From NCBI GenBank assembly GCA_963729625.1, contig CAVSOU010000014.1:64001-128000 (forward strand): 64,000 nt of DNA. Reading direction: 5' to 3'. The translations under genes were made by a program, and so were the position numbers. Below, piece after piece: positions 10,157 to 42,238 of this stretch. Each line of letters opens with the position of its first letter. Position 1 is the first letter of the stretch. Origin of the DNA: an uncultured bacterium. GTDB taxonomy: Bacteria; Chloroflexota; UBA5177; JANWHV01. The notes beneath the pieces were generated by a model. The model was not told the origin of the DNA. It made no database searches and saw only the letters and a list, made by a program, of their open reading frames with translations.

Positions 10157-10189
10157 CCCTAAGAGATTTTGCCGAACGCAAGGTGTAAA

Positions 10190-12247
10190 ATGCGCTTTCG
10201 TATCGATTCCAGACTGCTTGATCGCTTCCCGAATGCATGCATTGGACTCGTTGTCGCCTACGATCTCGACAACCGCGGGAACAGCCCGGTCATCACAAAT
10301 CTGCTGAGGAGCTCCGAATCGGATGTGCGGGAGCGATTCGCGACCGAGAACATGCTCGCGTTGCCCGCGTTTGTCACGTGGCATGAAGCATTTGCCAGGC
10401 TGGGCATGAGCGCAAAGCGATTCAAGATCTCGGTCGAAGCGCTGGCTGCACGTGTGCTGAAGGGCGCGCGACTGCCCGACCTGAATCCCGCCGTCGATCT
10501 GGCCAATGCATTATCCCTCAAGTACTTGCTCCCTCTTGGCGCTCACGACGTCGATCGCCTTCGTGGAGACATCGTCGTCGGCCCCGTACGCCCAGGGGCG
10601 GCGTTCACTCCGATGGGCGGCTCGAAGCCTGAAACGGTCGATCTGGAGGAGATCGTGTACGCGGACGACCAGGAGGTGCGCACGCGAAGGTGGGTGTGGC
10701 GGGAGGGCGAGCATTCACGGGTCACGGCCACGACGCGAACGGTGTTGTTTCCCATCGATGGGTGGATTGGACTCAACGATTCGGATGTGCGTTCGGCAAA
10801 GGTCGAGCTCGCTACCCTCCTCGAGGAGCAGCTCGGCGCGCATGTACGGACGTTCTTCCTGGATCGAAGCACTCCCGAAGCGGTGCTGGAACCCGACGAT
10901 TCGCGTCAGGATCAGCCCATTTCTACCCACGATGGGTTTCGCATGGCCGGAGTCGCGTATCGCGAGATTCCCTCCGAGCCGGTCACCGTCAAGGCGGAAG
11001 CTCTCGAGCCGGTGGTTGAGCAAGCGCGGCCAACGATCCGTCGCGCCGGGCCCTGGGGCAAGCAGGACGCGATCTCCAGCCTGCTGAATCGGGCCACCGA
11101 ACATGTCGTGATCCGTGAAGAGCTGGAGGGGCGGCTGCGAAGCGGCGACCGACTGCGCGTTAAGCTCGGGATCGATCCGACGAGTCCCCATGTGCATATC
11201 GGCCATGCCGTCGTATTGCGGAAGCTTCGTGCCTTTCAGGACCTTGGGCACACGATCTGCCTCGTCATCGGCGACTTCACAGCTCAAATTGGCGACACAT
11301 CCGACAAGTCGGCCATGCGACAGATGCTCTCCGAGGAAGACGTTTATCAGCACCTGACAACCTACAAGAAGCAGATATCTCAAATACTCGACGAGTCGAA
11401 AGTCGAGTGGAGCTACAACACCGACTGGCTAGGCTCGCTTCGCTTCAAGGACGTGGTCGGACTGGCGGCCAATTTCACCGTCGCTCAGATGCTTGAGCGC
11501 GAGAGCTTCGCCAAACGCTACGAAGCTGGACAGTCGATCGGTCTGCAGGAGTTCCTGTACCCGCTGATGCAGGGGTACGATTCGGTCGCTCTGAAAGCAG
11601 ACGTCGAAGCAGGCGGCACGGACCAGCTCTTCAACTTGATTGCCGGTCGCACGTTGCAGCGTGCATTCGGGCAGCCGCCGCAAGCAGTGCTCACCTGCCC
11701 ACTCCTGCTGGGCCTCGACGGCCGCAAGATGAGTAAGTCGTACGGTAACTTCATCGCACTTGACGAGCCGGCCAAAGATATGTACGGGAAAGCAATGTCC
11801 TTTCCGGACGAGCAGATTCTTCCATGCTTCGAGCTTTGCACAGACGTTCCGCTCGATGAGCTGGACACCATCGCGGACGCGCTGGAGGCAGGGCAGAATC
11901 CAATGATCGCGAAGAAGCGGTTGGCCTTCGAGATCACACGACTTTACCACTCCGAGGCGGCGACCCGATCGGCTCAAGAGGCATTTGAACGCGAGGTGCA
12001 GCGCAGGGAACGCCCTGCCGACATTCCAGTCGTCACGCTTGACCGTGGAGGTGAGTGGCTGCTGGCGGACCTCGTCGTGGCAACGGGCCTCTCCAAATCA
12101 AAGGGTGAGGCGCGGCGAAAGGCCGCTGAGGGCGCCGTGTACTACGACAATACACGTGTCATTGATCCACTGGCGTCCATAGAGGTCCGGGATGGCATGG
12201 TGATCAAGCTCGGCAGGCACTATCGCCAACTCCGACTACCCACATAA
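10190..12247 (+). CDS. tyrS: Tyrosine--tRNA ligase with N-terminal B3/4 (PheT-editing-like) domain
   Basis: C-terminal ~390 aa: KLGIDPT, HIGH, YPLMQGYDS, GGTDQLFN, KMSKS, S4-like tail. N-terminal ~230 aa: SVEALAARVLKG, LPDLNPAVDLAN..SLKYLLPLGAHDVD, EIVYAD, RRWVWRE. Confidence 0.93.
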   Translation: MRFRIDSRLLDRFPNACIGLVVAYDLDNRGNSPVITNLLRSSESDVRERFATENMLALPAFVTWHEAFARLGMSAKRFKISVEALAARVLKGARLPDLNPAVDLANALSLKYLLPLGAHDVDRLRGDIVVGPVRPGAAFTPMGGSKPETVDLEEIVYADDQEVRTRRWVWREGEHSRVTATTRTVLFPIDGWIGLNDSDVRSAKVELATLLEEQLGAHVRTFFLDRSTPEAVLEPDDSRQDQPISTHDGFRMAGVAYREIPSEPVTVKAEALEPVVEQARPTIRRAGPWGKQDAISSLLNRATEHVVIREELEGRLRSGDRLRVKLGIDPTSPHVHIGHAVVLRKLRAFQDLGHTICLVIGDFTAQIGDTSDKSAMRQMLSEEDVYQHLTTYKKQISQILDESKVEWSYNTDWLGSLRFKDVVGLAANFTVAQMLERESFAKRYEAGQSIGLQEFLYPLMQGYDSVALKADVEAGGTDQLFNLIAGRTLQRAFGQPPQAVLTCPLLLGLDGRKMSKSYGNFIALDEPAKDMYGKAMSFPDEQILPCFELCTDVPLDELDTIADALEAGQNPMIAKKRLAFEITRLYHSEAATRSAQEAFEREVQRRERPADIPVVTLDRGGEWLLADLVVATGLSKSKGEARRKAAEGAVYYDNTRVIDPLASIEVRDGMVIKLGRHYRQLRLPT

Positions 12248-21234: not shown

Positions 21235-21307
21235 GGGCCCTTAGCTCAGCGGTTAGAGCTCCCGACTCATAATCGGTTGGTCCCCGGTTCGAATCCGGGA
21301 GGGCCCA
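21235..21307 (+). tRNA. tRNA with CAT anticodon, most likely tRNA-Ile2 (lysidine)
   Basis: GGGCCCTTAGCTCAGCGGTTAGAGC...GACTCATAATC...GGTTCGAATCC...GGGCCCA; C4-G69/C5-G68 acceptor pairs like E. coli ileX. Confidence 0.9.
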
Positions 21308-21319
21308 CTCTTCTCTTGA
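21266..21319 (+). repeat. attL direct repeat (54 bp)
   Basis: ctcataatcggttggtccccggttcgaatccgggagggcccactcttctcttga. Confidence 0.93.
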
Positions 21320-21399
21320 ATGAGAGAAACCAACAAAGCCAACGGGCCGATTGGCTGCAAGCACATCGTTCCTCATCGCCGAGAATCCGATGGCCAAGA

Positions 21400-21575
21400 T
21401 GCGTCGCCCATGGTCGGACAGAAGCTTGTCCCCGTCGCATCCGACGACGACCTGGATAAGCTGCTGAACACCGTGCGCGGACACGACTTTCTCTCGATTC
21501 GGGATCGGGCCATCATCGCGCTTCTTGCCGACACAGGCATGCGACTTACCGCGTGCACGGACATCGAGGTAGCGA
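21400..21575 (+). pseudogene. Tyrosine recombinase/integrase fragment
   Basis: SDDDLDKLLNTV...RDRAIIALLADTGMR (box I catalytic Arg); no HxxR or Tyr box follows. Confidence 0.75.
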
Positions 21576-21845
21576 GTCCCCGCGGTTCCCAGAACGGGCT
21601 GCCCATCTCCCGCCTGGTTCCCATGCAGGAGGCTGGGACTCTCCCATCGCCCGTCGATCCGCTAGCCCTGACCCTGGCACGCCCGACGGCGCTGCGACGC
21701 CTGTTCCAGTCGCTGCGGCACGCCCGCGGTGTACGCAGCCGGTGCCGGTCGGAAGAGATTCAGCCGGCATTGATCGACGCGGTCGCTCCTGCGGGGCGCA
21801 ACTTTGCAGCATATGTCCCCTTTCTAGCCGAGGCCAGAGAGTGCA

Positions 21846-24800
21846 TCATCCAGTCTTCGTCCACTGGCCGGGCAGCAGTGCCCCACGGTCCAGACATGGA
21901 TCGAAGCCGGCTCGGCTGATGATCAGCAGATTCTTCTGGCGCAACCAGCGATAGACGCCTGGAGGGGGATCCTGGTGTGGATTGTCCGAGCAGAAGCCGT
22001 TCTGATTTGCCGGCAAGTAGCCGGTCATGGTAAGGCGGCCGGCCGGCGTGGCCGTGAAGTACTCTTCGACCATGAAGTCGGGGCTCGCCACGTCGACCGC
22101 AGCGCCGGTGTGCACGCTCACGGGAGAGAAGCCGACCCAGCCAGGTCCGATCGTGATTGTGGGCTCGGTGCCTACCCAGTCGGAGGTATTCGGGTCGTGG
22201 GCGGCAATCCCGTCCGCGTTCTGAAAGGTGCGGCGATACGTGCCTACGAGCGAAGCAGGCACAGTCGTCACGATCGCGGGCCGGGACACCGGCTGCTCGC
22301 CGAACAGGAGCGCGGCCACGTGCAGGCCAACGTCCTCGGCACTATTTTGCAGCTCGTTGCCAAATATGACGATCGTCACTCCCGCGTCGGGAAAGCGCAT
22401 GTTGAGGGTGGAAAAGCTATTCCATGCGCTGTCGGTGTAGATCACGCGGCGGCCGAGCGCGGTGCCTATCTGCCACAGGTAGCCTATCCCGCGCGGGGCA
22501 ATCCCAGGGTCCGTCTGGCCGATGCTCGCACGTGGGGCAAAGAGCGTGGCCAAATACGGGCGCGAGAGCAACTTTCCGGCGAACAGCGCGTTGTCATAGG
22601 CGTAGACGTCATGCACAGTGGTATATGCCTGAAAGGAGTCGTTATACACGGTGTTGTGATCCAGATCGGCGCCGTGGTAGGCGCGCGCAACGACGCTCGA
22701 TGCCATGGCATCGGTGAGCCGCCAGGTGTTCTTCATACCGAGGGCGCTCAGGTTGCTGTTGAGGACGAAGTTCTCCCAGGACCCGTGGGAGGTCTGCTCG
22801 ATAATCGTGCCGAGGACAAGCGCGCCGCACGTTGAGTAGTTGATAGTCGAACCGATCCGCCCAAAGAGACCGCGCAACGGCATGTCCTGACACCGTCCGA
22901 TCGACCACTGGGTGGTCTGGCCGGCACTGCCCCAGCTGTAATCGGGCAGACCGGCGGTGCCGTCGAGCACCATGCGCACGGTGATCTGCCTCCAGCTTGG
23001 TGGGCAGCTCGAGAGGTACGTGCAGATCGGCGTTTGCCAGGCCAGCCTGCCGCGTTGGATCAGTTGCAGGGCGCCCAGGACGGAGAGGCTGTCACTGACG
23101 CCGACGGCCGGATAGGTAGTGGCGGGCGTGTTGGGGGAACGGTGCAGGCGATCGGCCAGGCCATAGCCCTTCTCCAGCACGACCGCGCCCTGTCGCGCCA
23201 CCAGCACGGTGCCACTGAGCTGTTGATGTGCCGCGAGGTCACCCAGATAAGCGTCGACGGTGGCGGCAAGGCTCGGCGGCCGTGTCGCCATCGACGCGCG
23301 CGCCCACACGCCTATTGCCACGACGACCAGCATCGCTAGCAGCCCGGCCGCGGCCGCCAATCGGTGGCGCCGTACCAAGGGCCGTGCTACCACCCGTGCC
23401 TCCGCGTGCAGCGCGGCTACGGCGGCTTCCAGCTCCTTGGCCGACTGGAAGCGCCGTCCCGGATCCTTTGCCAGGGTCTTCTGGATCAGGGCGTCCCAGC
23501 CAGCCGGGATGGCGGGATTGAGGCTGCTGGGCCGAGGCGGGTCGTCCTGCACGTGCTTAATCGCCACGGTCAGTGCGTCCTCCCCCTCGAAGGGCGGCCG
23601 GCCGGTCACCATGTGGAAGAGCAGGGCGCCGAAGGCGTAGATATCGGTGCGGCCGTCGATCCTCTTCCCCGCGATCTGCTCCGGGGCCATGTAGAGGGGA
23701 GTGCCTATACGCATGCCGGTGGTAGCAATCGTCTGCGGCGAGGCGTCGGGCTGGAGGAGGCGCGCGATGCCGAAGTCGGTTACTTTGACCTGGTCGTCGC
23801 CCACCACCATGACGTTGTCCGGCTTGATGTCGCGGTGCACGATCCCCTGCGCATGGGCGTACGTAAGTGCCGCAGCCACCTGCAGAGCCAGCCGCTTGGC
23901 GCGAGGCAAAGGCAGCGGCACAGTGCGGAGAATCTGGCCAAGCGTAGGGCCGTCGAGTAATTCCATGATGATACAGCAAGCATGTTGCTCGGCGAACGTA
24001 TCGTGGATCCGCACGATGTTGGGGTGGGACAACGTGGAGAGCATTGCGCCTTCCTGCTGGAAGCGCAGCAGGACGTCGAGGTCGATCTCTGTTCGGGCCA
24101 GCACCACCTTGGCGGCTACCATGGCGCCGGTCGCGCGGTCGCGGGCGCGGAAGACCCGCCCCATGGCCCCGGCGCCGATCTCCCCCTGCAGCTCCAGCCG
24201 TCCACCAAGTGACCTGGTCAGTTGGTCGATAAGCCGAGGATTGCCCTTGGTACGCCGGTAGACAAAGCCCGCGAACTCCTCCGAGACCTCATGCTGGCCC
24301 ATTTCGGCCGCCACCATGCTCGTGGTCTCCTCCAGCGACAGGCGACGCAGGCCCAAGCGCTCCATCACGCCTTCGCGTGCCAGGGCCTGCACCAGCTGGG
24401 AAAGCTCGGGGTGCTCCTCGCCGAGCCGCGCATCACGGAAGCTTCCGGCCAGCAGGATACGCGAACCGCGGATTGCCCGGGCCAAGTGCCCGAGCAGCCG
24501 GAGGCTCTGGCCGTCGGCCCAGTGCAGGTCGTCCAGTAGCAGCGCCAGCGGGACAGACTGGGCGACGAGCTTCAGCAGATCGGCCACAGCGCCGGCGATC
24601 TGCTGCTGTTCCACTGTGCTTGACGCCAGCGCAGTGCTACCGGCCTGCGCCTCGCGGATCAACACTTGGATCCTCGCCCAGCGCCGTTTTACCTCCGCTT
24701 GCGAGCCGGCCGGCACGGCTGCGACTAGGTCGGTGAGCGCTTCCACAAAGAGATAGTGGGGAGTGGTCTGCTCGGCGGGGTAGCAACGACCCGTCGCCAC

Positions 24801-25265
24801 TACGCAGCCGCGACTTCGAGCTTCGACCATCAGCTCCTGTACAAGCCGCGTCTTCCCTATTCCCTGCTCGCCATGGAGCAGGACCAACTGTCCTTCGCCC
24901 TCCATCGCTGCCTCCAGCAAAGCCCAGAGACGCCCCCGCTCTTCCTCCCGCGCCACCATCGGCCGGGCCGGCAGAGCGCCAAGAAAGCTGCCTTCGGGCG
25001 GGCCGTCATCGGTCGGTGCTATGGCAGTCGCGGCCAGTGCCGCGTGCTCGAACATCGCGCGATCCACCGCCGACAGTCCGAGGGCATCGGCCAGCCGGCG
25101 TACCGTGTAGGCTCGGGGACGGGTCTTGACGCTGCGTTCAAGGTCGCTGATAGCGCGCACGCTCAACCCGGCGTGGTCAGCCAACTCTTCCTGGGTCAAG
25201 CCTACGGCGACCCGGAAACGGCTGAGGAGGCTGGCGAAACCGGGCGGCTGTGCAGGGTCCATCAC
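21846..25265 (-). CDS. Multidomain signalling protein: XRE-HTH, AAA/STAND NTPase, Ser/Thr kinase, TM, extracellular beta-lactamase-fold domain
   Basis: LTQEELADHAGLSVRAISDLER; GEQGIGKT and LLLDDLHWAD; GAGAMG, VAAK, HRDIKPDN, DFG, YMAPE; TM LAAAAGLLAMLVVVAIGVW; LSGTVLVARQG..GYGLADR. Confidence 0.88.
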   Translation of the reverse strand: MMDPAQPPGFASLLSRFRVAVGLTQEELADHAGLSVRAISDLERSVKTRPRAYTVRRLADALGLSAVDRAMFEHAALAATAIAPTDDGPPEGSFLGALPARPMVAREEERGRLWALLEAAMEGEGQLVLLHGEQGIGKTRLVQELMVEARSRGCVVATGRCYPAEQTTPHYLFVEALTDLVAAVPAGSQAEVKRRWARIQVLIREAQAGSTALASSTVEQQQIAGAVADLLKLVAQSVPLALLLDDLHWADGQSLRLLGHLARAIRGSRILLAGSFRDARLGEEHPELSQLVQALAREGVMERLGLRRLSLEETTSMVAAEMGQHEVSEEFAGFVYRRTKGNPRLIDQLTRSLGGRLELQGEIGAGAMGRVFRARDRATGAMVAAKVVLARTEIDLDVLLRFQQEGAMLSTLSHPNIVRIHDTFAEQHACCIIMELLDGPTLGQILRTVPLPLPRAKRLALQVAAALTYAHAQGIVHRDIKPDNVMVVGDDQVKVTDFGIARLLQPDASPQTIATTGMRIGTPLYMAPEQIAGKRIDGRTDIYAFGALLFHMVTGRPPFEGEDALTVAIKHVQDDPPRPSSLNPAIPAGWDALIQKTLAKDPGRRFQSAKELEAAVAALHAEARVVARPLVRRHRLAAAAGLLAMLVVVAIGVWARASMATRPPSLAATVDAYLGDLAAHQQLSGTVLVARQGAVVLEKGYGLADRLHRSPNTPATTYPAVGVSDSLSVLGALQLIQRGRLAWQTPICTYLSSCPPSWRQITVRMVLDGTAGLPDYSWGSAGQTTQWSIGRCQDMPLRGLFGRIGSTINYSTCGALVLGTIIEQTSHGSWENFVLNSNLSALGMKNTWRLTDAMASSVVARAYHGADLDHNTVYNDSFQAYTTVHDVYAYDNALFAGKLLSRPYLATLFAPRASIGQTDPGIAPRGIGYLWQIGTALGRRVIYTDSAWNSFSTLNMRFPDAGVTIVIFGNELQNSAEDVGLHVAALLFGEQPVSRPAIVTTVPASLVGTYRRTFQNADGIAAHDPNTSDWVGTEPTITIGPGWVGFSPVSVHTGAAVDVASPDFMVEEYFTATPAGRLTMTGYLPANQNGFCSDNPHQDPPPGVYRWLRQKNLLIISRAGFDPCLDRGALLPGQWTKTG

Positions 25266-25470
25266 GTGACTTTCTGCAAAAGGCTGAGCAGGGCGCTCTT
25301 GGCGATCGCACTACCCAATCTGCCGGGCAGTACAAGTGACACGTCTATGTTACTTATGACACAATAGCGCTGTCGCCGCGAGGTGCTCGTGCCTCACTGG
25401 ACGGTTGCGACACCGAGGCGCGCTTGTGCGCGAACGACAGGTCGGATCGTTGCACGCCGGGAGATCAACA

Positions 25471-26511
25471 ATGAGTGTCAACCGAACACGACGAGCACTG
25501 CGGCTGGCGATCAGCACATTCCTGCTGCTTGGTGTTGTGTGGCTGCCGGGACGGACCCAGGCGATCGGTACTGCACGGCCGGCTGCTGCTAGACCAGACT
25601 GGACCGCGCAGACCTCCGGCACCAGCGTCTACTTGGACGACGTCGACTGCCCGAACACGACCACCTGCTTCGCCATAGGTCACGACGGCACGCTCCTCGC
25701 GACCACCAACGGGGGCGAAACGTGGACCCGACAGACGTCCGGTACCGCGGAAGTGCTATACGGCATTAGCTGCCCGAGCGCTACCAGGTGTGTTGCCGTG
25801 GCACTCGACGGCACGATTCGCGCGACTGCCGACGGCGGGAAGTCGTGGATCCTGCAGAACTCCGGCACGGAGAACTCTCTGGCGAAAGTGAGCTGCCCGA
25901 GCACTACGACCTGCCTCGCCGTGGGTCCACAAGGCACCATTCTTGGCACCAACAACGGCGGCAAGAGCTGGAGCAGGCAGGTATCCATTACCTCAAACGA
26001 CTTCACCGGCCTCAGCTGCCCGAGCACGCGGATTTGCTTCATAGTAGGTGTGAACGGCACCATCCTGACTAGCACCAACGAGGGCAGCAAGACGCCGACC
26101 TGGAGCCTGCAAACCTCCGGCACCCTGGACTTTCTGATCGGCCTCAGTTGCCCAAGCACCACTACGTGCCTCGCCACGGGAGACAACGATGCCATCCGGG
26201 TCACCACTAACGGCGGTAGGGCGTGGAAGCTACTCACGTCCAACACCAGTTCGTGCAGAACACATGGCCCTGGGTGCGCGACAATGAGTATCAGCTGTCC
26301 AAGCGTCACCACCTGTTTTGCCATGACAGACCTGGGCACCTTTGTGGCCACCAGGAACGGGGGCAAGACGTGGGTCCCGCAAACTGCCCCGAAGCTACCT
26401 CAGAATCCTGCCCATCCTACGTGGGCGCGGATGGCTTATCTGGACTGTCCGAGCACCAGCACCTGCTTCGCCGTGGGCGACAGGGGCGTCATCCTGCGCC
26501 TTCGGAGATAG
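25471..26511 (+). CDS. Secreted BNR/YCF48-like 7-bladed beta-propeller protein
   Basis: Signal peptide and seven ~41-aa repeats W..QTSGT...L..SCPS..TC.AVG..GTI..T.NGG. Confidence 0.85.
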   Translation: MSVNRTRRALRLAISTFLLLGVVWLPGRTQAIGTARPAAARPDWTAQTSGTSVYLDDVDCPNTTTCFAIGHDGTLLATTNGGETWTRQTSGTAEVLYGISCPSATRCVAVALDGTIRATADGGKSWILQNSGTENSLAKVSCPSTTTCLAVGPQGTILGTNNGGKSWSRQVSITSNDFTGLSCPSTRICFIVGVNGTILTSTNEGSKTPTWSLQTSGTLDFLIGLSCPSTTTCLATGDNDAIRVTTNGGRAWKLLTSNTSSCRTHGPGCATMSISCPSVTTCFAMTDLGTFVATRNGGKTWVPQTAPKLPQNPAHPTWARMAYLDCPSTSTCFAVGDRGVILRLRR

Positions 26512-26953
26512 CAGCTTCCATCGAAGCGACCACATCAATAGTGCGCGGGTCGCCGCCGGTCATCATGGCTCTGGATCTCAGTCACCCGTGTCCCGCTCCG
26601 CAGATTCACGCTCGGTTGCATCGTCAACGGCAGGATCCGCTGACGCCCATACAGCGTCGAACGTGGCAGTCAGGCCGGCCGCCGCGCTGCCACGGGGCGT
26701 CGCAGTCACCCCCCTGTTCGTCGCCGGAGTGATGCGCGCCAGTCGGCGCCTGCGTTCCCGAGTCGGCGACTCCGGAACATCCTGCTAATCCCGAGAACTT
26801 GCGCGCCTGCCGGGCATTGTGTGGGTCTTGTGTGGGTTCGCACGTGGGAAACGAACAGCCACGGGTCCAGAGTGGATCACAGGGATGGCAGGCGGTGGGA
26901 GGTGCGATACGCGTAGCGACCTGAGAATAGCGCGGGGAAGGAGGGGAACCACA

Positions 26954-27229
26954 GTGCCTACCTACATGGTTGAACGTGTCCTGCCAGGCGCCACAGTGGA
27001 ATCGCTCGAGGCCATGTGCCAACAGCTTCAACGCACGTGCAACGGCACTGCCGAGGGCAGCGAAGTGCGCTACCTGCGCAGCACGTTCACGCCGGGCGAC
27101 TCACGCTGCCGCTGCCTGTTCGAGGCGCCCAACGATGACCTGGTGCAGGCGATGAACGAGGTGGCTCAGATCCCGTATATCCGGACCCTTCTCGCCGTGG
27201 AGCTTATCCCCAACGACGTGAAAGAGTAG
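26954..27229 (+). CDS. DUF4242 / SCO4226-like small protein
   Basis: PTYMVERVLPG, VRYLRSTF.P.DSRCRCLFEAPN..V...N; GGAGG RBS. Confidence 0.75.
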   Translation: MPTYMVERVLPGATVESLEAMCQQLQRTCNGTAEGSEVRYLRSTFTPGDSRCRCLFEAPNDDLVQAMNEVAQIPYIRTLLAVELIPNDVKE

Positions 27230-27497
27230 CCCATGGTGACACGTTGACGTCTCCTGCGCGCCTACGGGATCGATATGCAATCTCGCAGCACGACTGCACG
27301 GACCGCGGCATCGCGGCCGAGGATGACTAACCTACCAAGAGAAAGAGGATGGGATGAAACAGCTGGCTGGATGCCGGCCGGGACAAGGCTCTGAGTCCTC
27401 GGATTGCAATTGATTCGACCGCATGGACCATCTGTCTGCTTGCGCAGTCACCCGATCGGCAAGCGGCAGTGGGTGACCGTTCAGGAAGGAATAGAGC

Positions 27498-28592
27498 ATG
27501 AAACGATTCCTCGTTCTCCTCCTCGCCAGCCTGGTCATGGGCATAGGGGCCCCAGCGCTCCAGACGCACGCAGCGAATCACAGCACGTTGGCGGCGGCCA
27601 TGGGAACGCCGCCTACCACGCTGGGCGCGCAGATCGAAACGTATCTCACGGGGCTCGCGGCCAAGAACCAGCTGAGCGGCGTTGTGCTGGTGGCATGGCA
27701 CGGCACGGTGCTCCTGAGCCACGGCTATGGCATGGCCGACCGGGAGCACTCGGTGGCCAACTCACCAAGCACGAAGTATCCGCTCGCCGGCATCAGCTTT
27801 GCCATGTCACTGGTCGCCGCCCTCAAACTGGAGGAGCAGCGCACGCTCCACGACGGGGCGCTGGTCTGCGCCTATTTGCCCTCCTGCCCGGCCGCCTGGA
27901 AGCACCTCACTATCGGTATGGTGATTGACAACACAGCCGGACTTCCCAACTGGGATTGGGAGCATCAGGGGAACACGGTCGCAGATTCGCTGGCCGGCTG
28001 CCAGTCCGAGGCACTGAGCATCACGGTGGACTACCAGAACTGCACAGTTATCGTGCTGGGCACCATCTTCGAGAAAGTGACGGGCAAGCCGTGGGCTACC
28101 GTGATGCGCGCCGCACTCTTCGGGCCGGCCGGCATGGCGCACAGCGGCAGGATAACGGACGCGTTAGTGCCGCCCGCAAGAGCCAGTGCCTACTCGGGCG
28201 ACCAACCGAACCCCGGCACGCACTTCAACACCTACTATCACGTCTACGCCACGCTGCAGGATGTCTACGCGTACGACAACGCCATCTTCGGGGGAAAGAT
28301 CATCTCACAGCATGCCCTGCAGCGGCTCCTGGCACCGAAAACCGAAGTCTCACCGCCCGACGCGGGCATCACCGCTGAGCAGCAGGCTGCGCAATGGAAG
28401 CTCGGGACGCTCGGCGGACATCGAGTAGTCCTTACCACTGGCAGCTCCGCCGCGTTCACTGCGGCCAACGTGCGCTTCCCTAATGACGACGTGACGGTCA
28501 TTGTCCTCAGTAATGAAGATCAGAACGACGTGGAGGCTGTGGCTGTGCAGCTGGCCGAGCTGGTCCTTGGTATACGTCCGACGCCGGCGTAG
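27498..28592 (+). CDS. Secreted beta-lactamase/serine-hydrolase-fold protein lacking catalytic motifs
   Basis: Signal peptide; LSGVVLVAWHG..GYGMADRE, DDVTVIVLSN; the SxxK position reads AGISF. Confidence 0.82.
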   Translation: MKRFLVLLLASLVMGIGAPALQTHAANHSTLAAAMGTPPTTLGAQIETYLTGLAAKNQLSGVVLVAWHGTVLLSHGYGMADREHSVANSPSTKYPLAGISFAMSLVAALKLEEQRTLHDGALVCAYLPSCPAAWKHLTIGMVIDNTAGLPNWDWEHQGNTVADSLAGCQSEALSITVDYQNCTVIVLGTIFEKVTGKPWATVMRAALFGPAGMAHSGRITDALVPPARASAYSGDQPNPGTHFNTYYHVYATLQDVYAYDNAIFGGKIISQHALQRLLAPKTEVSPPDAGITAEQQAAQWKLGTLGGHRVVLTTGSSAAFTAANVRFPNDDVTVIVLSNEDQNDVEAVAVQLAELVLGIRPTPA

Positions 28593-28828: not shown

Positions 28829-30694
28829 ATGAGACGACTGATCATAGCGATCTGTCTGGTGCTTGTGGGATGGTGCGGCACGGGTCTGGAGGGAGGTCAA
28901 GCTCTGGCCGCCTCGCTCTGCGTTGGAGGTGGACCTGGCTGCTACTCGACAATTGCTGCAGCCATCACTGCAGCGCACGACGGCGATGTGATTCGCATTG
29001 GCCCAGGCACATTCGCCGGGGGCATCAGCATCGACGTCAGTGTGCAGATCATTGGGGCGGGAGCGGGCGCGACGATCATCTCGGGCGGGGGCCCGGTAGT
29101 GACGATCGGGATTCCGAACGCGGCCGCGGAACCAACCGTGAGTATCGCTGGCGTGACGGTGACCGGCGGCGTGAACCATACCTTCCCCAGCCCCTCGGAC
29201 GCAGAAGGAGGCGGCATCTATGTCTCCCCCTCTGTCGGAGGAGGCGCCCTCACCACGGTGACGATATTCAACTGCGCCATTAGCGGAAACAGCGCCCAGT
29301 CGCTCGTCGGTGACGGAGATTCACCGTCCAACTCCACCAGCAGAGGCGGCGGCATCGCTAACTCCGGGACCTTGGCGCTCGTCAACACTACGGTGAGCGC
29401 CAACACTGCGGCTTGGCATATCAGCCCGGCGCCGGAGCCGGACTTTGACAAAGCCGAGGGCGGCGGCATCGCGAACAATGGCACGGGCACGTTGACCCTG
29501 CGCAACAGCACCGTCAGCGGCAACAGCGCGACTCTCACCACGACTGAGACCTCACGTGGCGACGGGGTAGGTGGCGGAGGCATTCTCAACCAAAATACAA
29601 CGCTGACCGTAGAGAATAGCACCATCGTCAATAACACTGCGAGCTCCGTCACCGCGGCGACCACAAACTTCGACTACGCCATCGGCGGAGGCGTTTTCTC
29701 TGGTGGCACACTGACCGTCAAGAACAGCACGGTCGGCGGCAACTCGGTCAGCTTCTCCACGGCGGCAGTGCAACCCAACCTGTTCGTGCACGGGGGTGGG
29801 ATCGAAGACGGCGGCACGGCGAACATCGACGGGACCGCCGTCAGCGGCAACTCCGTGACGGCGACGACCACCTCGCTAGACGCTAATAGCGGCGTCGGCG
29901 TGGTGGGCGGCGGCATCCACGTCGATGGGACGGCGACCATCCGGGGCAGCCAGATTACCGACAACAGCGTGACGACGACTGCGTACGGCGGCTTTGCCGC
30001 GGCCAACGGCGGCGGCATCGACGACGACGGCTCCCTCGTCCTGCTGGCCAGCAGCGTCCGCGACAATCACACCAGCACCACCCTGACGTCCACGCAGACC
30101 GGTGCGAGTGCCTTTGCCACCGGCGGCGGCATGGATGTGGACGGATCGGCCTCTGTTCTGGGCACGACCTTTAGCGGCAATAGCGCCACGTCGACGACTC
30201 CCGCGGCGACAGCCCCGTTCCCAGGCGGCACCTACGCCTTGGGGGGAGGACTCAATGTCGCGGGCGGGGACGTTCCGGTAGCGACGGTGGCTATGACGGA
30301 TAGCATCGTCGTCGGCAACCGCACCTCTGCCAATTCCACCTCAGGCACGGCGGATGGACCGGGCGGTGGCATCGCAAACAGCGGCATGCTGACCATGCGC
30401 AACACTGCCGTGGGCAACAACACCTCCAGCGCAAACGGCCCTAGCGGTTTCGCGGGAGGCGGGGGCATATGGAACGATCTTCCCCCAGGCCCGCCGTCCC
30501 ATCTGGCTCTCACCGACAGCGCGATCAGCCGCAACAGTGCGATTGGGAGTAGTCAGGGTATCACGGTGCAGGGCGGAGGCCTGTTCAGCGGCTCTAGCGA
30601 CGGCTCGACGGTGATGGCGACCAGGATCGTCATCGCCTTGAACACGCCGGGCAACTGCTACCCACTGCACGTCGTTTCAGGCTGCTTTGGCTAG
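28829..30694 (+). CDS. Secreted right-handed beta-helix (polymorphic GGGI repeat) protein
   Basis: Signal peptide; TIAAAI..A.DGD.I.IGPGTF; many GGGI.N.G.L.L.NSTVSGNSA repeats. Confidence 0.82.
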   Translation: MRRLIIAICLVLVGWCGTGLEGGQALAASLCVGGGPGCYSTIAAAITAAHDGDVIRIGPGTFAGGISIDVSVQIIGAGAGATIISGGGPVVTIGIPNAAAEPTVSIAGVTVTGGVNHTFPSPSDAEGGGIYVSPSVGGGALTTVTIFNCAISGNSAQSLVGDGDSPSNSTSRGGGIANSGTLALVNTTVSANTAAWHISPAPEPDFDKAEGGGIANNGTGTLTLRNSTVSGNSATLTTTETSRGDGVGGGGILNQNTTLTVENSTIVNNTASSVTAATTNFDYAIGGGVFSGGTLTVKNSTVGGNSVSFSTAAVQPNLFVHGGGIEDGGTANIDGTAVSGNSVTATTTSLDANSGVGVVGGGIHVDGTATIRGSQITDNSVTTTAYGGFAAANGGGIDDDGSLVLLASSVRDNHTSTTLTSTQTGASAFATGGGMDVDGSASVLGTTFSGNSATSTTPAATAPFPGGTYALGGGLNVAGGDVPVATVAMTDSIVVGNRTSANSTSGTADGPGGGIANSGMLTMRNTAVGNNTSSANGPSGFAGGGGIWNDLPPGPPSHLALTDSAISRNSAIGSSQGITVQGGGLFSGSSDGSTVMATRIVIALNTPGNCYPLHVVSGCFG

Positions 30695-31101
30695 CATCCG
30701 GCAGATTGGCCCGCCCGGCCCGTGGCGACCATCAGCGTCTGGACCACTGCAGGGACCGGGGCAGGACCTGACCGGCTGACGATTCGCGACGGCCCCGACA
30801 CGCCGGGGCAGCAAGGAGTGCGCTTGCTGCCCCGGTGACCCTGTTGGAGAAGTAGCCACTACCGCTGTCACCATCGTCTGTGTGCTCCAGTCAACCATGA
30901 TGCCGATCTCCGAGATCGTCAACACCTGGTACTCTAGGATCAAGCCTCAGCGCATGATCGAACTGGGTCGGATGGGCAGGGTCGTGACCAGATGAGGGAC
31001 GGGCCGAGGACCTTCCGTTGGGAGCAACCAACAATGCACTTTTCGTTGCGCCTCCGGACCCTGGTGGCCTCTGGTAAGCACATCGCTCTGGAGCTGCCCA
31101 C

Positions 31102-31155
31102 CTCATAATCGGTTGGTCCCCGGTTCGAATCCGGGAGGGCCCACTCTTCTCTTGA
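31102..31155 (+). repeat. attR direct repeat (54 bp)
   Basis: Identical to 21266-21319. Confidence 0.93.
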
Positions 31156-31389: not shown

Positions 31390-31847
31390 GTGATGTTGTG
31401 GTGACCTGCGAAGGGTCGGGGGTTGCGTCGCGCACCACGACGGAGATTGCCAATCCGTGCGTGGTGATTGAAGTGCTGTCTGAGAGCACCGAGCATTACG
31501 ACAGGACGCAGAAGTTCGAATACTACCGTGCCTGTGAGAGCTTGCTCGAGTATGTGTTGGTTAACACGGATCGGCAGCTCGTGGAGGTGTATCGGCGAGA
31601 CCCCGATGGGCACTGGGGCCTCTTCAGCATGCATGGCCCGGCCGACAGCGTGCGGTTGGCCGCGCTCGACGTCACCTTCCCGGTGAGTACCCTCTATGAG
31701 CGCACCGATGTGCCCGAGACACTCCCAGCCAAGAGCGCTCGCCCCGGACGGCGCCGACGGACCTGGATGGCACGCATGGGCCCGCCAGCTGCCCCTGCTG
31801 GGCCAGATCGCCCAAGCGGAAGCCAGAAGGCATCTGCGCGCAGGTAA
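31390..31847 (+). pseudogene. Uma2 family endonuclease-fold fragment (N-terminus missing)
   Basis: DVVVTC..NPCVVIEVLSESTEHYDR..KFEYYR..SLLEYVLV; similar to the C-terminal part of 35647..36231. Confidence 0.7.
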
Positions 31848-36400: not shown

Positions 36401-37156
36401 CTACTTCAGCGCGATCCCGTCTCGGACAGAATCTGCCACGCCGATGCTCGTACAAGGAGTGTCGTCGAAAAGCTCCGTGACCACCATATCGGATTTGTAG
36501 ATGCTTTCGTTTCCATGACGCAAAGGACTGATGGTGGTCTTCCGCATCGCATGAGCCGACAGCATTCCGCGCAAACAGTCCGTCAGCATATGACTGATCA
36601 CGTTGTGCGCATCCTCGAGGTGCGGAATCGACTTGTGCCGCACCACGATGGCGAGCTCAACAAGCGATAACGCCTCGCCGCCCTCGAACCCCAAGAGCGC
36701 CGCTGTGCGCATTCCACGTTTGCGCGCCAGTGCGAGTCCTTCGATCACGTTTGGCGAGTTTCCGCTGGTGCTCACAGCCAGCGCCAGGTCGCCCGGCCGG
36801 CCGCACGTGCGCAGTACCTCCGAGAAGACGCTGCTAAACCCTATATCGTTTGCCAGGGCGGTCATCGTCGACGCCATGGACACGAGAGAGAGACAGCGGA
36901 TGCCGGGCGCGCCAGGCACGCGCGTGCCCTTGCTCAGGTCGCACGCCATGTGGTCCGCGGTTGCCGCGCTGCCGCCGTTGCCGAACACATAGACGTTGCG
37001 GCCGGACTCGTTCACCGAAAAGACAAGCCTCGCCAAGCCTGCGACGTCGTCGAGAGGAATCACATCGAGAATCGTGTGCATCGACGCCAGGTAATCCTGG
37101 GCCACGCGCTGCGCATTCAAGCTTCCGGCCACATCGACGTCCTGGATCTGATGCAT
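36401..37156 (-). CDS. gmhA: SIS-domain phosphoheptose isomerase
   Basis: FGNGGSAATADH, TALAND, STSGNSPNV, EDAH. Confidence 0.85.
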   Translation of the reverse strand: MHQIQDVDVAGSLNAQRVAQDYLASMHTILDVIPLDDVAGLARLVFSVNESGRNVYVFGNGGSAATADHMACDLSKGTRVPGAPGIRCLSLVSMASTMTALANDIGFSSVFSEVLRTCGRPGDLALAVSTSGNSPNVIEGLALARKRGMRTAALLGFEGGEALSLVELAIVVRHKSIPHLEDAHNVISHMLTDCLRGMLSAHAMRKTTISPLRHGNESIYKSDMVVTELFDDTPCTSIGVADSVRDGIALK

Positions 37157-37408
37157 GTGCTCCCGAACCTTTCTGCCCCGCGTCCGCCACGAAAGTTGCC
37201 CCCAGTTTAGCACGAATGCCACATTTGTGGCGAGTCCGCCAAATGGCCTCGCCTCCTGCGGGTCACCTCGGTTCTCCATCGAGTTGCCCGCTCGGTGCGC
37301 GATTGTCCAGCGACGGCGAGGTCTGCGCCGCATTCAGGCAACGCCTCCCGTTCACGTCGGTCCTTCGGGGCTCGGCGGAGGCGACGTGACACAGGGCTCA
37401 CGCATACG

Positions 37409-37438
37409 TTGACACCGGGAAAACTGCCGCGGTATGGT
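37409..37438 (+). promoter_or_regulatory. Putative promoter for the hddA operon
   Basis: TTGACA-18 nt-TATGGT. Confidence 0.4.
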
Positions 37439-37570
37439 TACACCGAGTTGAAGCGAACCAGGACAGGACCGGCGATGCGGTCTTTGTCGATGCCGGGCGG
37501 CTCCTCCGGCGTGGCAGACGGCCTCGTTATCGTACGGGAACCAGAGGTCACGCTCCGGCCCGGAGGGCTG

Positions 37571-38587
37571 ATGGTTATCGCGCGCGCCCCTATGCGTATC
37601 AGCTTCGCCGGTGGTGGAACCGACCTCCCGGCATACTACGAGCAGCACGGGGGGCAAGTTCTCAGTGTGTCGATCGATAAGTACATCTACGTGACCATTC
37701 AGCCGTCTCGCGCCGGCGTTCAGGTCACGTCACCGGATGAGGGCGTTCAGGCGCCTGAGACGATTCCCACAGATGCGCCGGGCATTCGCCTTCCACTACT
37801 CGTTGCCGATCGCTGCGCTCCCGGCAGAAATCTCCGTTTGTTCATAGCCGGGGAAGTGCCCTCGGGCACCGGACTCGGCAGCTCCAGCGCGTTGACAGTC
37901 GCCCTCATTGCCGGGCTCGGCGCCTACGCAGGCGATGAGCGTAGCGCGGTAGAGATCGCGGAACTGGCGTGCGAGCTCGAGATTGACTATCTCGGCTCGC
38001 CGATTGGCAAGCAGGATCAGTACGCCAGCGCCGTCGGCGGCATGAACGCGCTGACGTTCAACCGTGATGGCAGTGTCGACGTGGAACCGATTCGCTTAAC
38101 GCCGGACGTTCTCGACACGCTCGAGCGCAGGCTCATGCTCTTCTTCCTGGGCACGCGCCGCAACGCTGGTTCTGTGCTCGCAAGCCAGCGACGCCAGAGC
38201 GCGGCAGGCAATCCACAAACCATAGCTGCCCTGGGCGCCATGATGGCGCTTGCCGGGGACATGCGCCACGAACTTGTGCGTGGCGACCTCGAACGCTTTG
38301 GCTCGCTCCTTCACGACTCATGGATGCAGAAGCGCCAGGTGACCAGCGGCATCACCACGAGCTATATCGATCGGTGTTATACGGTCGCGCGACAAGCGGG
38401 CGCTACGGGTGGAAAGGTCGCGGGCGCAGGCGGCGGTGGTTTCCTGCTGTTGTACTGCCGTGAGGACCACCAGGTAGCGGTCACGGGCGCGCTTGAGCCG
38501 CTCGGCCTTGCGCGCCTGCCATTCGATTTCTCTGCCGCTGGCGTACAAGTCGTGCTCAATAACCCACTGCTGGACGCTTCGCGATGA
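37571..38587 (+). CDS. hddA: GHMP kinase, D-glycero-alpha-D-manno-heptose-7-phosphate kinase
   Basis: APMRISFAGGGTD, PSGTGLGSSS, IGKQDQYASAVGG, GAGGGGF. Confidence 0.88.
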   Translation: MVIARAPMRISFAGGGTDLPAYYEQHGGQVLSVSIDKYIYVTIQPSRAGVQVTSPDEGVQAPETIPTDAPGIRLPLLVADRCAPGRNLRLFIAGEVPSGTGLGSSSALTVALIAGLGAYAGDERSAVEIAELACELEIDYLGSPIGKQDQYASAVGGMNALTFNRDGSVDVEPIRLTPDVLDTLERRLMLFFLGTRRNAGSVLASQRRQSAAGNPQTIAALGAMMALAGDMRHELVRGDLERFGSLLHDSWMQKRQVTSGITTSYIDRCYTVARQAGATGGKVAGAGGGGFLLLYCREDHQVAVTGALEPLGLARLPFDFSAAGVQVVLNNPLLDASR

Positions 38588-40083
38588 CACCCGAGGCGAG
38601 CACCGGCGCACTGGGATCTGGCGCCGGTGTGTGGCCCGGACCGGCACTGAACGAGCGCCGCTGGTGGTTGCTTGTCGTCGCGCTCCTGGCTGTGCTGGAC
38701 TCCCTGCTTATCGTGCTCGCACTATTTGTTGCGTACAAGCTTCGGTTTGGCAATGGACTGCTGGACGATACATTCTCGCTTGCACGCATCCGCGACACTC
38801 GGCCGGAGTTTTACGAGAAGCTCGTGCTGATCTTCAGCGTGTTGAGCGTTCTGATCTTTGCGTCCATGGGTTCGTATTATCGCCGCAACGTCCTGAGAGG
38901 CTCGATCCTCTATCAGCAAGTCTTCCTTGGCACCGGGCTTGCGGCACTGCTGGTCGAGTTCGTGAGCTATCTGTCCGACCGCCAGTACGCGATTGCGCGT
39001 GGCTGGTTGTTGCTGGCTTGGCTCCTCGGCGCCCTGGCCGTTGCCCTTGGCCGATTCGCCGGTCGCCGAGTCTTGCGCGCGGTCCATCGCGCCGGCATCC
39101 TCGTGCAGCCGGCGATTATCGCCGGCATCGGCCACGAAGGACAAATCCTCGAATGGCACCTGCGCCGCTCTCAGGAGGAGGGTATTCGAGTGATCGGGTA
39201 CGTCGACTCCGTCGCCCCCGTGGGACAGGATGTTCCGGGAGGGCTCCACGTGCTCGGCCACATCGACGACCTTCCTAACCTTATCGGACATCATCGGGTC
39301 GGCCTGGTGCTCCTTGCGACATCGGACCTCTCGCACGTCGATGCGCTCCGGGTCTTACAGCGTGTCATGCCCACTCCGGCCGAGTTATCGTTGGCGCCGG
39401 ACCTGTTTCGCATGTTGACCACTGGCGGCCACCTGCGCCGGATCGGCGGCGATGCTCTTCTGGTAGTCGATAAGGTGCGCATTACCGGTCTGGACGCAGT
39501 GCTCAAGGGTGTCCTTGACATCGTGGGCGCACTCACCCTGCTCGTTCTCACTTCGCCCCTATGGCTGGCGGTCGCGATCGCGGTCAAGATCACGTCGCCA
39601 GGCCCGCTGCTGTCGCGCCACGCGGCGCTGGGGGTAGGTGGGCGACAGTTCAACGCGCTGAAGTTCCGCACTACCCGATTCGGCGCCGGCGACGACGCGG
39701 ACGATGCAACCCAGGACAGGCTCGTGCGCGGACTTCCCGTGCGACAGAATCCGAATGCAACGGCGCTGGGGCGATTTCTCATTCGCTTCAGCCTGGACGA
39801 GCTACCGCAGTTGTTGAACGTGTTTGCCAGGCAGATGAGCCTTGTCGGCCCCTACAAGATTGATCCGCGGCAGGCGTCTTTGTACGGCGACCGCCAGCTG
39901 GCCCTGTTCACAGTTCGCCCCGGTATCACCGGAGTATGCCAGATACACGGGCGCGGCGAGCTAACGGTAGAGGAACGCTCGCTGCTCGACGCGGAGTATG
40001 TCCGCACCTACACGATCTGGCGCGACCTCCAGATCCTGGCTGCTTCTATCCCCGCCGTGGTTCGCGGGACCGCGGCATACTGA
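38584..40083 (+). CDS. Polyprenyl glycosylphosphotransferase (WcaJ/WbaP-like sugar transferase)
   Basis: N-terminal TMs, CoA-binding-like region, KFRT, SLDELPQLLNV, MSLVGP, RPGITG. Confidence 0.88.
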   Translation: MTPEASTGALGSGAGVWPGPALNERRWWLLVVALLAVLDSLLIVLALFVAYKLRFGNGLLDDTFSLARIRDTRPEFYEKLVLIFSVLSVLIFASMGSYYRRNVLRGSILYQQVFLGTGLAALLVEFVSYLSDRQYAIARGWLLLAWLLGALAVALGRFAGRRVLRAVHRAGILVQPAIIAGIGHEGQILEWHLRRSQEEGIRVIGYVDSVAPVGQDVPGGLHVLGHIDDLPNLIGHHRVGLVLLATSDLSHVDALRVLQRVMPTPAELSLAPDLFRMLTTGGHLRRIGGDALLVVDKVRITGLDAVLKGVLDIVGALTLLVLTSPLWLAVAIAVKITSPGPLLSRHAALGVGGRQFNALKFRTTRFGAGDDADDATQDRLVRGLPVRQNPNATALGRFLIRFSLDELPQLLNVFARQMSLVGPYKIDPRQASLYGDRQLALFTVRPGITGVCQIHGRGELTVEERSLLDAEYVRTYTIWRDLQILAASIPAVVRGTAAY

Positions 40084-40279
40084 ACACTCGTTCAGGCGCA
40101 GGCTGCAGCAGACGGATGTTGTACGAGTCGAGAGACCTCAGTGTGTGGCGGCGCTATGCCGGGCAAGGTCTCGCCGTGGAATTGCTTCCTATTGACCACT
40201 AATGGCTTCAACAGCCACCATACGGTGAGAGAGCGTCGCGGACGACCTCGCATATGGTCGAATCCTGCGCAGGAGAGGT

Positions 40280-40903: not shown

Positions 40904-41124
40904 CAGGAGCGCAAACGACCGCGAATTCCGCGCATTCGGCGGAGGTCCCGTCAGCTCAGTCGATCGTAGTTGCCGAGTTCGGGCTCGAGCGCCATCGTCC
41001 TTCCTCCTCGCACTACTGTACATCATGCCGCGGGCCGATGCCGCGTGCCCAGCACACCGCTTCCGGGTCGATTCGGACAGTCGCCGGCCTGTGCGCACGT
41101 GCTGAGTCCGCGCGGAGGCAGCTG

Positions 41125-42005: not shown

Positions 42006-42238
42006 ATCGCAGATACCGCAGATGCGCTCCAGATGACGCAGATGTGTGCTCCAAGCTGCGACCTTCAGTTGCAGATAAGGCCGTCACCGATGGCAAGCGC
42101 CGGCCGGGTGAACGCACCGCGGAACGAGTAGGCTTGAGTGCTCAGCTCTGAAAGGCACCGCATCGCTCGGGCACGCCCCGCTCCAGAAGCTTCTTGGTGG
42201 TCACTGAATGGGGTATAGTAGCTCAAGGAGGAAGGACG

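Follow-up and report, generated by a model that had tools for sequence, protein, structure and literature searches.

The PASTA kinases (PknB/Stk1) are bitopic Hanks-type Ser/Thr kinases, N-terminus inside and C-terminus outside the cell, with an extracellular module that has penicillin-binding-protein (PBP) kinship and is thought to read cell-wall material. BlaR1 and MecR1 are membrane proteins in which an extracellular β-lactamase-fold sensor drives a cytoplasmic transcriptional response; in BlaR1 the sensor has a class D fold whose Ser can be acylated, and the protein has four transmembrane (TM) helices and a zinc protease and works with a separate repressor. In ToxR and CadC the cytoplasmic DNA-binding domain is an OmpR-like winged helix. 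AfsK-AfsR and PknK are separate or differently ordered pairings of a kinase with a STAND protein, and the two-domain S12 proteins Pab87, SurE, and DAP are active enzymes with the SxxK motif. Here we describe a gene for a 1139-residue receptor that carries, in one chain, a helix-turn-helix (HTH) domain, a STAND-type NTPase, a Hanks kinase, one TM helix, and a catalytically dead β-lactamase-fold ectodomain, together with a neighboring gene for a secreted paralogue of that ectodomain. Both genes lie in a 64,000-nt stretch of DNA from an uncultured Chloroflexota bacterium (GenBank assembly GCA_963729625.1, contig CAVSOU010000014.1, positions 64,001 to 128,000, forward strand); this whole stretch is 'the window', and all positions refer to it. 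The two genes and the parts of the receptor are as follows.

21846–25265, minus strand: receptor gene, 1139 residues, in the order HTH-AAA_16-kinase-TM-pseudo-β-lactamase-lipocalin
25056–25238, minus strand: XRE-type HTH, residues 10–70 (HTH_3, E 4.8e-11; HTH_31, E 7.3e-10)
24204–24956, minus strand: AAA_16 (STAND-type) NTPase with a three-helix lid, residues 104–354 (AAA_16, E 2.3e-24)
23415–24197, minus strand: Hanks-type Ser/Thr kinase domain, residues 357–617 (Pkinase, E 4.6e-53), catalytic motifs all intact
23283–23369, minus strand: single TM helix, residues 633–661 (Kyte-Doolittle window maximum 2.5)
22311–23270, minus strand: β-lactamase-fold (PF00144/S12-like) ectodomain, residues 666–985
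21849–22310, minus strand: C-terminal β-rich, lipocalin/DUF3471-like part of the ectodomain, residues 986–1139 (about 155 residues), with two Cys
27498–28592, plus strand: secreted pseudo-β-lactamase, 364 residues (PF00144 at residues 50–347, E 1.1e-32)

A preliminary description of the locus had named an XRE-HTH, a STAND-type NTPase, an intact Hanks kinase, a TM helix, and a β-lactamase-fold ectodomain as the parts of the receptor, and Pfam, hydropathy, and structure modeling agree on all five. Translation probably begins at the ATG at 25262, one codon inside the listed GTG. Pfam places HTH_3 at residues 16–66, AAA_16 at 104–266 (87.2 bits; cutoff 32.6), Pkinase (PF00069) at 359–609 (180.7 bits; cutoff 31.7), and Beta-lactamase (PF00144) at 673–979 (E 2.7e-31); the two window proteins score 109.4 and 114 bits with PF00144 (cutoff 27). 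The HTH has sequence matches to 434 repressor-type HTH structures. In the model of residues 1–640 (predicted local distance difference test, pLDDT, 86.7; predicted template-modeling score, pTM, 0.69), a five-helix HTH (residues 10–80) is followed by a P-loop domain, three lid helices (311–354), and the N-lobe strands of the kinase from residue 357; the Foldseek matches of this model in the PDB are kinase domains, with PknB and PknA first (35–40% identity; target template-modeling score, TMt, 0.77–0.87). The kinase residues K386, E405, HRD (477–479), N484, DFG (497–499), and APE (527–529) are invariant or nearly so in alignments of 10 and 35 sequences, as are Walker A (G132–T139) and Walker B (D245–D246) of the NTPase among the receptor's relatives; the activation-loop residues T512, T515, and T516 are invariant.

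The NTPase is of the STAND type, reduced to a nucleotide-binding domain and a helical lid; neither the Pfam scan nor the structure model contains a winged-helix, TPR, or other repeat family after it. Its lack of the usual TPR sensor had been remarked on before and holds in comparison with the nearest kinase-less relatives, in which a TPR region is present. In a hydropathy scan residues 633–661 are the sole strong hydrophobic stretch of the receptor, with the Arg-rich RPLVRRHR on the N-terminal (cytoplasmic) side, and the 364-residue protein has a hydrophobic N-terminal stretch (residues 3–23) followed by THA/AN. Because the scan finds one TM stretch in the former and an N-terminal signal-like stretch in the latter, we take the receptor to be bitopic, with N-in/C-out topology, and its paralogue to be secreted.

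The receptor falls outside the PASTA kinases, the BlaR1 family, and the canonical repeat-sensor STAND proteins. It shares with PknB/Stk1 the bitopic N-in/C-out Hanks kinase and an outside module with PBP kinship; however, Pfam finds no PASTA family in it, the match to NF033483 (PknB_PASTA_kin) scores 304.5 against a cutoff of 450 and covers only residues 351–630, the ectodomain is a whole dead S12 fold with a lipocalin-like domain, and an HTH and a STAND NTPase lie ahead of the kinase. The likeness to BlaR1 that had been proposed stands as a conceptual one; the fold is class C/S12-like rather than class D, the Ser is gone, Pfam finds no Peptidase_M56, and the kinase-NTPase-HTH output is in the same chain. 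The arrangement of an N-terminal cytoplasmic HTH (residues 16–66), one TM helix (633–661), and a C-terminal outside part (666–1139) is that of ToxR and CadC, but the HTH is XRE/434-type and about 550 residues of NTPase and kinase separate it from the membrane. Among relatives that lack a kinase, the nearest are HTH-AAA_16-TPR regulators from Chloroflexota and Actinomycetota (35–49% identity over the N-terminal 350 residues), and the AfsR/MalT-like logic of an N-terminal output domain with an NTPase switch is shared; in the window receptor, the kinase, TM helix, and ectodomain replace the TPR region, and the kinase follows directly after the three-helix lid.

The ectodomain and the secreted protein are clear paralogues, as had been proposed (39% identity over 336 residues, E 1e-84, with all four of the motifs quoted earlier, QLSGxVLVA, GYGxADR, CxYLxSCPxxW, and DVYAYDNAxFxGK, in the alignment); no third copy of the domain occurs in the window. 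The loss of the SxxK and HxG motifs from both is borne out by an alignment to the domain hidden Markov model (HMM), in which the kinase has G/D and the secreted protein G/F at the Ser/Lys columns, and both have T at the motif-3 His column; two relatives of about 30% identity in the same alignment keep GS(I/L)TKQF, Y-x-N, and H-G-G. 'LASVTKPI' of EstB (1ci8) aligns with 'LAGISFAM' of the secreted protein. Both window domains have the Tyr of the YxN motif; the secreted protein also has the Asn, where the kinase has Thr. Among the ectodomain columns of the 10 aligned kinases there is no invariant Ser or Lys, which speaks against a relocated catalytic pair. With 39% identity to each other versus 26–31% to active relatives, the two domains are closer to each other than to those relatives, and they belong to one pseudo-enzyme clade. 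In source databases, relatives go under the names 'serine hydrolase' or 'CubicO group peptidase (beta-lactamase class C family)' despite the lost catalytic residues.

The extra Cys residues that had been noticed in both domains are four matching ones: C748/C754 and C792/C813, invariant in 10/10 kinases, correspond to C124, C130, C168, and C182 of the secreted protein. Active relatives share the first pair (CxxxxxC) but not the second, which is found only in the kinases and in the free-form subclade to which the window protein belongs. A protein of 367 residues from another source (P0014) is 87% identical to the secreted paralogue, with a middle stretch that corresponds to an alternative-frame open reading frame (ORF) in the window (27404–27928); two frame shifts that compensate each other distinguish this copy, and they may be a sequencing error or a true variant.

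The model of residues 666–1139 (mean pLDDT 87.4, pTM 0.85) contains a C-terminal module, residues 986–1139, that is mostly strands and was absent from the earlier domain list. Against the PDB, the best Foldseek match over both domains is Pab87 (2qmi; E 7e-24, query template-modeling score, TMq, 0.64), followed by SurE (6ksv/6ksu) and DAP (1ei5); in all of the both-domain matches the β-lactamase fold is followed by a lipocalin-like domain. A weak Atlas lead points the same way, with DUF3471 (score 0.77) for the last 155 residues. The first domain alone matches a Bacillus halodurans PBP (3tg9; TMt 0.83), R61 DD-peptidase, DltE, an FmtA-like protein, and a D-amino-acid amidase, and class C enzymes are also among the Foldseek matches. 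These matches, of both kinds, place the ectodomain in a lineage of D-stereospecific peptidases and esterases. The layout is thus that of the two-domain S12 enzymes Pab87, SurE, and DAP, that is, a β-lactamase fold and then a lipocalin-like β domain; unlike them, the window domains lack SxxK and are either anchored to a kinase or secreted without the second domain. The C-terminal module is kept in 7 of the 9 other aligned kinases (P0001, P0002, and P0004–P0007 among them); in P0008 and P0009 a DUF6923/YVTN propeller follows the dead domain and replaces the module.

A profile built from six pseudo-clade sequences was searched against 1.84 billion representatives and gave 64,588 matches at E<=1e-3 and 3,312 at E<=1e-30. 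We aligned 188 sequences to the domain HMM (the window kinase, matches from earlier searches, and 146 new top matches); 163 cover at least 80% of the domain, and the remaining 25 were left out. Ser and Lys are both kept in 105 of the 163; another 42 lack both and are shorter than 960 residues, and 16 lack both and are kinase-length. The 58 dead forms and the first 25 of the 105 active ones were placed in a quick maximum-likelihood tree, with support from the Shimodaira–Hasegawa-like approximate likelihood ratio test (SH-aLRT). In the tree, 34 rows make up a core dead clade (support 97), and other losses of Ser/Lys are scattered among the active relatives. The core clade compares with 106 active rows as follows.

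Ser column: core clade G in 79%; active rows S in 100%
Lys column: core clade T in 24%, no consensus; active rows K in 100%
His of HTSG: core clade G in 94%; active rows H in 92%
Motif-3 His: core clade T in 100%; active rows H in 91%
Tyr of motif 2: core clade Y in 88%; active rows Y in 99%

Conserved columns that set the pseudo clade apart are G782, F895, G897, T944, and N955. Within the core clade, the kinase ectodomains form a subclade of 17 rows (support 96), of which the short rows P0192, P0199, and P0247 are kinase fragments truncated at the N-terminus. The secreted protein of the window falls in a subclade of 9 rows (support 99) together with two Deinococcus proteins, propeller-fused forms, and the P0008 and P0009 ectodomains; 6 rows form another free subclade. 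By their sequences, then, the two copies in the window are old paralogues of one dead lineage, from sister subclades. A recent duplication of the ectodomain within the locus is ruled out: the copies are 39% identical, the secreted one is 62–64% identical to Deinococcus proteins, and they fall in sister subclades. A separate scan of genome contigs found 80 loci, none of them from the window's own genome or the Deinococcus genomes and all with free forms (23–37% identity); 78/80 keep S..K, and 0/80 are fused to a kinase.

Other proteins are built like the receptor. When long proteins were searched with the ectodomain, 12 matches came up, of which 9 have HTH, AAA_16, Pkinase, and Beta-lactamase together (38–66% identity over the ectodomain). 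A search with residues 1–350 listed 120 proteins, 82 without and 38 with a kinase; tallied from that listing, the ectodomains of the 38 kinase-bearing rows are as follows.

PF00144: 13/38
NHL/SGL/SBBP-type propellers (one also with Bmp): 17/38
Bmp only: 1/38
DUF6923 only: 1/38
External family unrecognised: 5/38
Different build: 1/38

The kinase-less 82 are mostly HTH-AAA_16-TPR proteins of about 1000 residues, and the few named ones are labeled Chloroflexota, Ktedonobacterales, or Trebonia. At least 18 other proteins have the architecture of the receptor (9 from the ectodomain search, 6 more from the N-terminal search, and 3 more, P0204, P0224, and P0274); because so many share it, the fusion is not an assembly chimera, an origin that the preliminary description had raised against itself. 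We checked the HTH-AAA_16-kinase-ectodomain order in P0074, P0083, P0091, and P0120. The ectodomain of P0091 is Bmp/PnrA-like (119 bits), a bona fide substrate-binding-protein fold, and that of P0074 is made of NHL propellers. Across 34 relatives the cytoplasmic 640 residues are 51–73% identical whatever the ectodomain, and the lid-kinase junction is invariant (F334, R337, R338, T339, G341, L353–R356, and L359); ectodomain identity among the kinases is 33–67%. Named relatives are from Chloroflexota/Ktedonobacterales for this cytoplasmic chassis and from Deinococcus for the free form. From these sequence comparisons, the receptor is one member of a small modular family in which kinase, TM helix, and ectodomain occupy the place of the TPR sensor of the nearest relatives.

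PknD, which has no N-terminal HTH-AAA_16, is matched by the sister chassis members that carry NHL propellers outside the cell (P0074); unlike it, the window receptor has a pseudo-β-lactamase and not a propeller as its ectodomain. Passages of PMC1262709 describe the PknD-type architecture, kinase-TM-NHL; in these and in passages of PMC2877116, β-lactamase occurs only as a Pkn2 substrate. A full-text literature search, with subscription-only papers outside it, returned no description of the receptor's architecture or of a β-lactamase-fold ectodomain on a bacterial kinase. The architecture that had been called unrecognised is not a singular build but one of a modular family with interchangeable ectodomains. 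Clusters with Pkinase and AAA_16 are common in the Atlas (Cyanobacteriota, Myxococcota, Chloroflexota, and Acidobacteriota), but the domain order is absent from the Atlas entries, and source databases give the relatives automatic composite names.

Three further observations concern the family. In the chassis variants P0120 and P0156 an adenylate/guanylate cyclase domain comes after the HTH and before AAA_16, with the kinase and NHL propellers further along the chain. P0082 (β-lactamase ectodomain) and P0083 (DUF6923) are chassis paralogues, and one genome may hold several chassis receptors side by side because both are listed with the same longest contig, 61980. A contig of a Chloroflexi metagenome-assembled genome (L013; JAICWV010000092.1, 7570–11020) has a 716-residue ORF that consists of an XRE-HTH, one hydrophobic helix, and NHL propellers, without NTPase or kinase, that is, a minimal version of the ToxR-like arrangement. 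Its HTH is 47% identical to that of the window, an HTH-AAA_16 ORF lies at 4511–5836 of L013, and the 716-residue ORF is 38 bp from, and convergent with, a β-lactamase-fold gene that reads T..N for S..K. As a single case, this locus supports the idea of a membrane-tethered HTH and a loose association of such proteins with dead β-lactamases.

The receptor and paralogue genes lie on a 9.8-kb island bounded by a tRNA-Met and a 59-nt repeat, as the preliminary description had proposed in calling them island-borne. The remaining features of the island are as follows.

21235–21308, plus strand: tRNA-Met (CAT), left-end integration site (ARAGORN; Rfam RF00005, 68.9 bits)
21261–21319, plus strand: left 59-nt direct repeat, that is, the 3' 48 nt of the tRNA and 11 nt more
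21443–21571, plus strand: putative tyrosine-recombinase remnant, about 43 matching residues, in the ORF 21320–21919
25266–25470, no strand: divergent intergenic region between the receptor and secreted-protein genes, candidate operator/promoter
25471–26511, plus strand: secreted BNR/Ycf48-like β-propeller (PSII_BNR, E 4.9e-14), with a hydrophobic N-terminus
26819–27229, plus strand: SCO4226-like (nickel-responsive family) small protein (PF14026 from residue 49, E 1.9e-12), likely start ATG at 26966
28829–30694, plus strand: Gly-rich repeat protein, 621 residues, secreted, with a hydrophobic N-terminus and no Pfam family; last gene of the island
31097–31155, plus strand: right 59-nt direct repeat, a partial tRNA-Met 3' part at the right island end

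The two repeat copies (repeat family D4) are 97% identical and 9836 nt apart; a 23-nt pattern taken from the repeat has 2 sites in the window versus 0 in 100 shuffles, and neither ARAGORN nor Rfam calls the right copy as a tRNA. The Rfam scan of the window found nothing beyond two tRNAs. The putative recombinase remnant next to the tRNA matches positions 5–46 of PF00589 (E 6.4e-4 for a 62-residue piece; 20 bits against a cutoff of 27.1) and resembles the start of the catalytic domain; the whole ORF has no family match at E<=1e-3. G+C is 0.652–0.654 at 22–26 kb versus 0.599–0.624 at 16–22 kb, but values of 0.63–0.66 recur elsewhere in the window. The receptor is encoded on one strand of the island and four genes on the other. 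The propeller has eight close Cys pairs (seven CX5C and one CX6C), mostly 'CPSxTTC' and about one per blade, that are mirrored by a 35-nt DNA repeat family of five copies (D1). The 621-residue protein, with recurring 'GGGI' units, the DNA repeats D2 and D3, and a weak N-terminal match to the NosD family (E 1.2e-6, below cutoff), is probably a β-helix.

We propose a tentative model, to which we give slightly less than an even chance as a whole, in which sensor, kinase, NTPase, and HTH act in series and the secreted paralogue acts with them. The dead β-lactamase domain would be the extracellular sensor and would bind its ligand without acylation, possibly in the old active-site pocket; the ligand would most likely be a D-amino-acid-containing peptide or a cell-wall fragment, a proposal based on descent from DD-peptidase, D-aminopeptidase, and D-Ala-esterase relatives. 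We regard the ectodomain position as a sensor slot because one relative has a Bmp/PnrA-like fold there and others have propellers. Ligand occupancy would alter kinase dimerisation and autophosphorylation of the activation loop (T512, T515, and T516), and the NTPase switch would receive the state of the kinase by way of the invariant lid-kinase junction, or through cis or trans phosphorylation. The switch would then set oligomerisation and DNA binding of the membrane-tethered HTH, which may bind within 25265–25470 and would control the divergent genes for the BNR propeller, the free pseudo-β-lactamase, and the repeat protein. Outside the cell, the free paralogue may act on the same ligand class as a binder or decoy for the receptor's signal, most likely as a capture/buffer protein. 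In sum, what the preliminary description observed is confirmed and its interpretation is partly supported: a real, conserved, modular, and undescribed receptor family in which a retired enzyme is the probable sensor.

Several observations weigh against this model. The intergenic region 25266–25470 has no clear operator, the only candidate being one imperfect 9-nt inverted repeat, and its sigma-70-like sites number 1 (25336–25365, plus strand) versus a shuffle mean of 1.8. In a bitopic membrane protein, the presence of an XRE-type HTH does not imply DNA binding; RodZ is an example. The old pocket may not be the functional site, because the pseudo clade has no consensus at the Lys equivalent and is degenerate along the motif-1 helix and at other pocket columns. 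The closest named relatives of the secreted paralogue are Deinococcus proteins (62–64% identity), and the subclade statements come from a quick tree with SH-aLRT support only. Pairing of a kinase with a free form outside the window depends on a single shared value, 11808, the longest contig listed for both the kinase P0008 and the free form P0018, which is a possible second co-location.

The dead domain might instead be a protein–protein docking scaffold, for the secreted island proteins or a surface partner, with the receptor reporting the assembly of an extracellular complex. The weak conservation of the pocket columns in the pseudo clade fits this explanation, as do the fusions of free members to propellers (DUF6923/DUF5074 in P0188, P0189, and P0191, and in P0010 and P0018 by precomputed Pfam), the Kelch fusion in P0254 (a pseudo form, though not of the core clade), the pseudo-β-lactamase plus propeller of the kinases P0008 and P0009, and the separate secreted propeller encoded two genes upstream of the free paralogue on the island. 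However, the motif-2 Tyr and its neighbors are conserved (at least 88%), which fits a retained cleft, and the propellers differ in type (BNR/Ycf48-like in the window versus YVTN/DUF6923 in the fusions); we consider a scaffold unlikely. The same motif-2 Tyr, kept in 88% of 34 rows, and the Y-x-N kept in the secreted copy could be read as signs that the domains retain hydrolase or acyl-transfer activity with a relocated nucleophile; against the absence of an invariant Ser or Lys from the ectodomain columns of 10 kinases, and the replacement of Ser by Gly (79%), of the motif-3 His by Thr (100%), and of the HTSG His by Gly (94%), with no consensus at Lys, in the 34 core rows, such activity is extremely improbable.

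Other explanations concern the cytoplasmic half. If the HTH were not a transcription factor, the receptor could be a PknB-like envelope-surveillance kinase, with the HTH-NTPase part serving regulation or localisation and the secreted genes as unrelated cargo. PknB and PknA are the closest matches of the kinase domain, no operator-like repeat was seen in the intergenic region, and in RodZ-type membrane proteins an XRE-like HTH mediates contacts with proteins; yet the HTH is strongly conserved (many invariant columns in 35 sequences) and resembles 434 repressor-type DNA-binding domains, it is the sole candidate output domain in the nearest kinase-less relatives (HTH-AAA_16-TPR), and the Chloroflexi L013 ORF ties the same HTH directly to a TM helix and a propeller without a kinase. 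We judge this explanation distinctly unlikely. It is very improbable that the island encodes a conflict or anti-phage system in which the STAND NTPase and kinase sense an attack on the envelope and shut down the cell by phosphorylation. The genes are island-borne, and the kinase domain matches PD-T4-6 and mad6 (PADLOC) and MADS6 and PglW (NCBIfam), but all of these matches are below cutoffs and cover the generic kinase domain only (residues ~350–650). Moreover, 0/4 of the other island proteins have a PADLOC match, a scan of flanking ORFs turned up no defence genes, the sensor is outside the cell, and the output is an HTH and not a nuclease, protease, or TIR domain. STAND NTPases themselves are described as common in conflict systems (PMC10907252).

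If the sensor-kinase-NTPase-HTH model is correct, a receptor Ser/Thr kinase, a STAND switch, and a tethered transcription factor, usually studied apart, would act in series in one polypeptide on a mobile island. It would also be a clear case of a whole β-lactamase/PBP fold turned into a non-catalytic receptor, and it would bear on the sensing of cell-wall and D-amino-acid peptides and on the labels assigned by annotation pipelines. A broader and rather doubtful reading is that of a 'transmembrane STAND' receptor: a switch like that of the nucleotide-binding leucine-rich-repeat (NLR) proteins, with its sensor moved outside by way of a Hanks kinase and one TM helix, a DNA-binding head, and cassette ectodomains, of which the retired enzyme would read D-peptide or cell-wall signals and the free copies would be co-receptors or buffers. 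Were this so, the single chain would correspond, in bacteria, to a receptor kinase joined to an NLR. The modular chassis is a natural set of chimeras for studying how a signal passes across one TM helix to an NTPase switch.

The flanks of the island are ordinary chromosomal genes (pheST, tyrS, mutS2, mnmE, yidC, jag, and miaA). A tyrosyl-tRNA synthetase gene (10169–12247; tRNA-synt_1b, 250 bits) encodes a 692-residue fusion with an N-terminal B3_4 domain, which is usual in the β subunit of PheRS. Genes for Uma2-family putative endonucleases are located at 31398–31847, directly after the right island repeat, and at 42194–42919. A sugar-nucleotide/polysaccharide set occupies 36401–47000 (SIS, GHMP kinase, Bac_transf, nucleotidyl transferase, and a heptosyltransferase-like GT9), and an O-antigen-ligase-like gene is found at 61397–62953.

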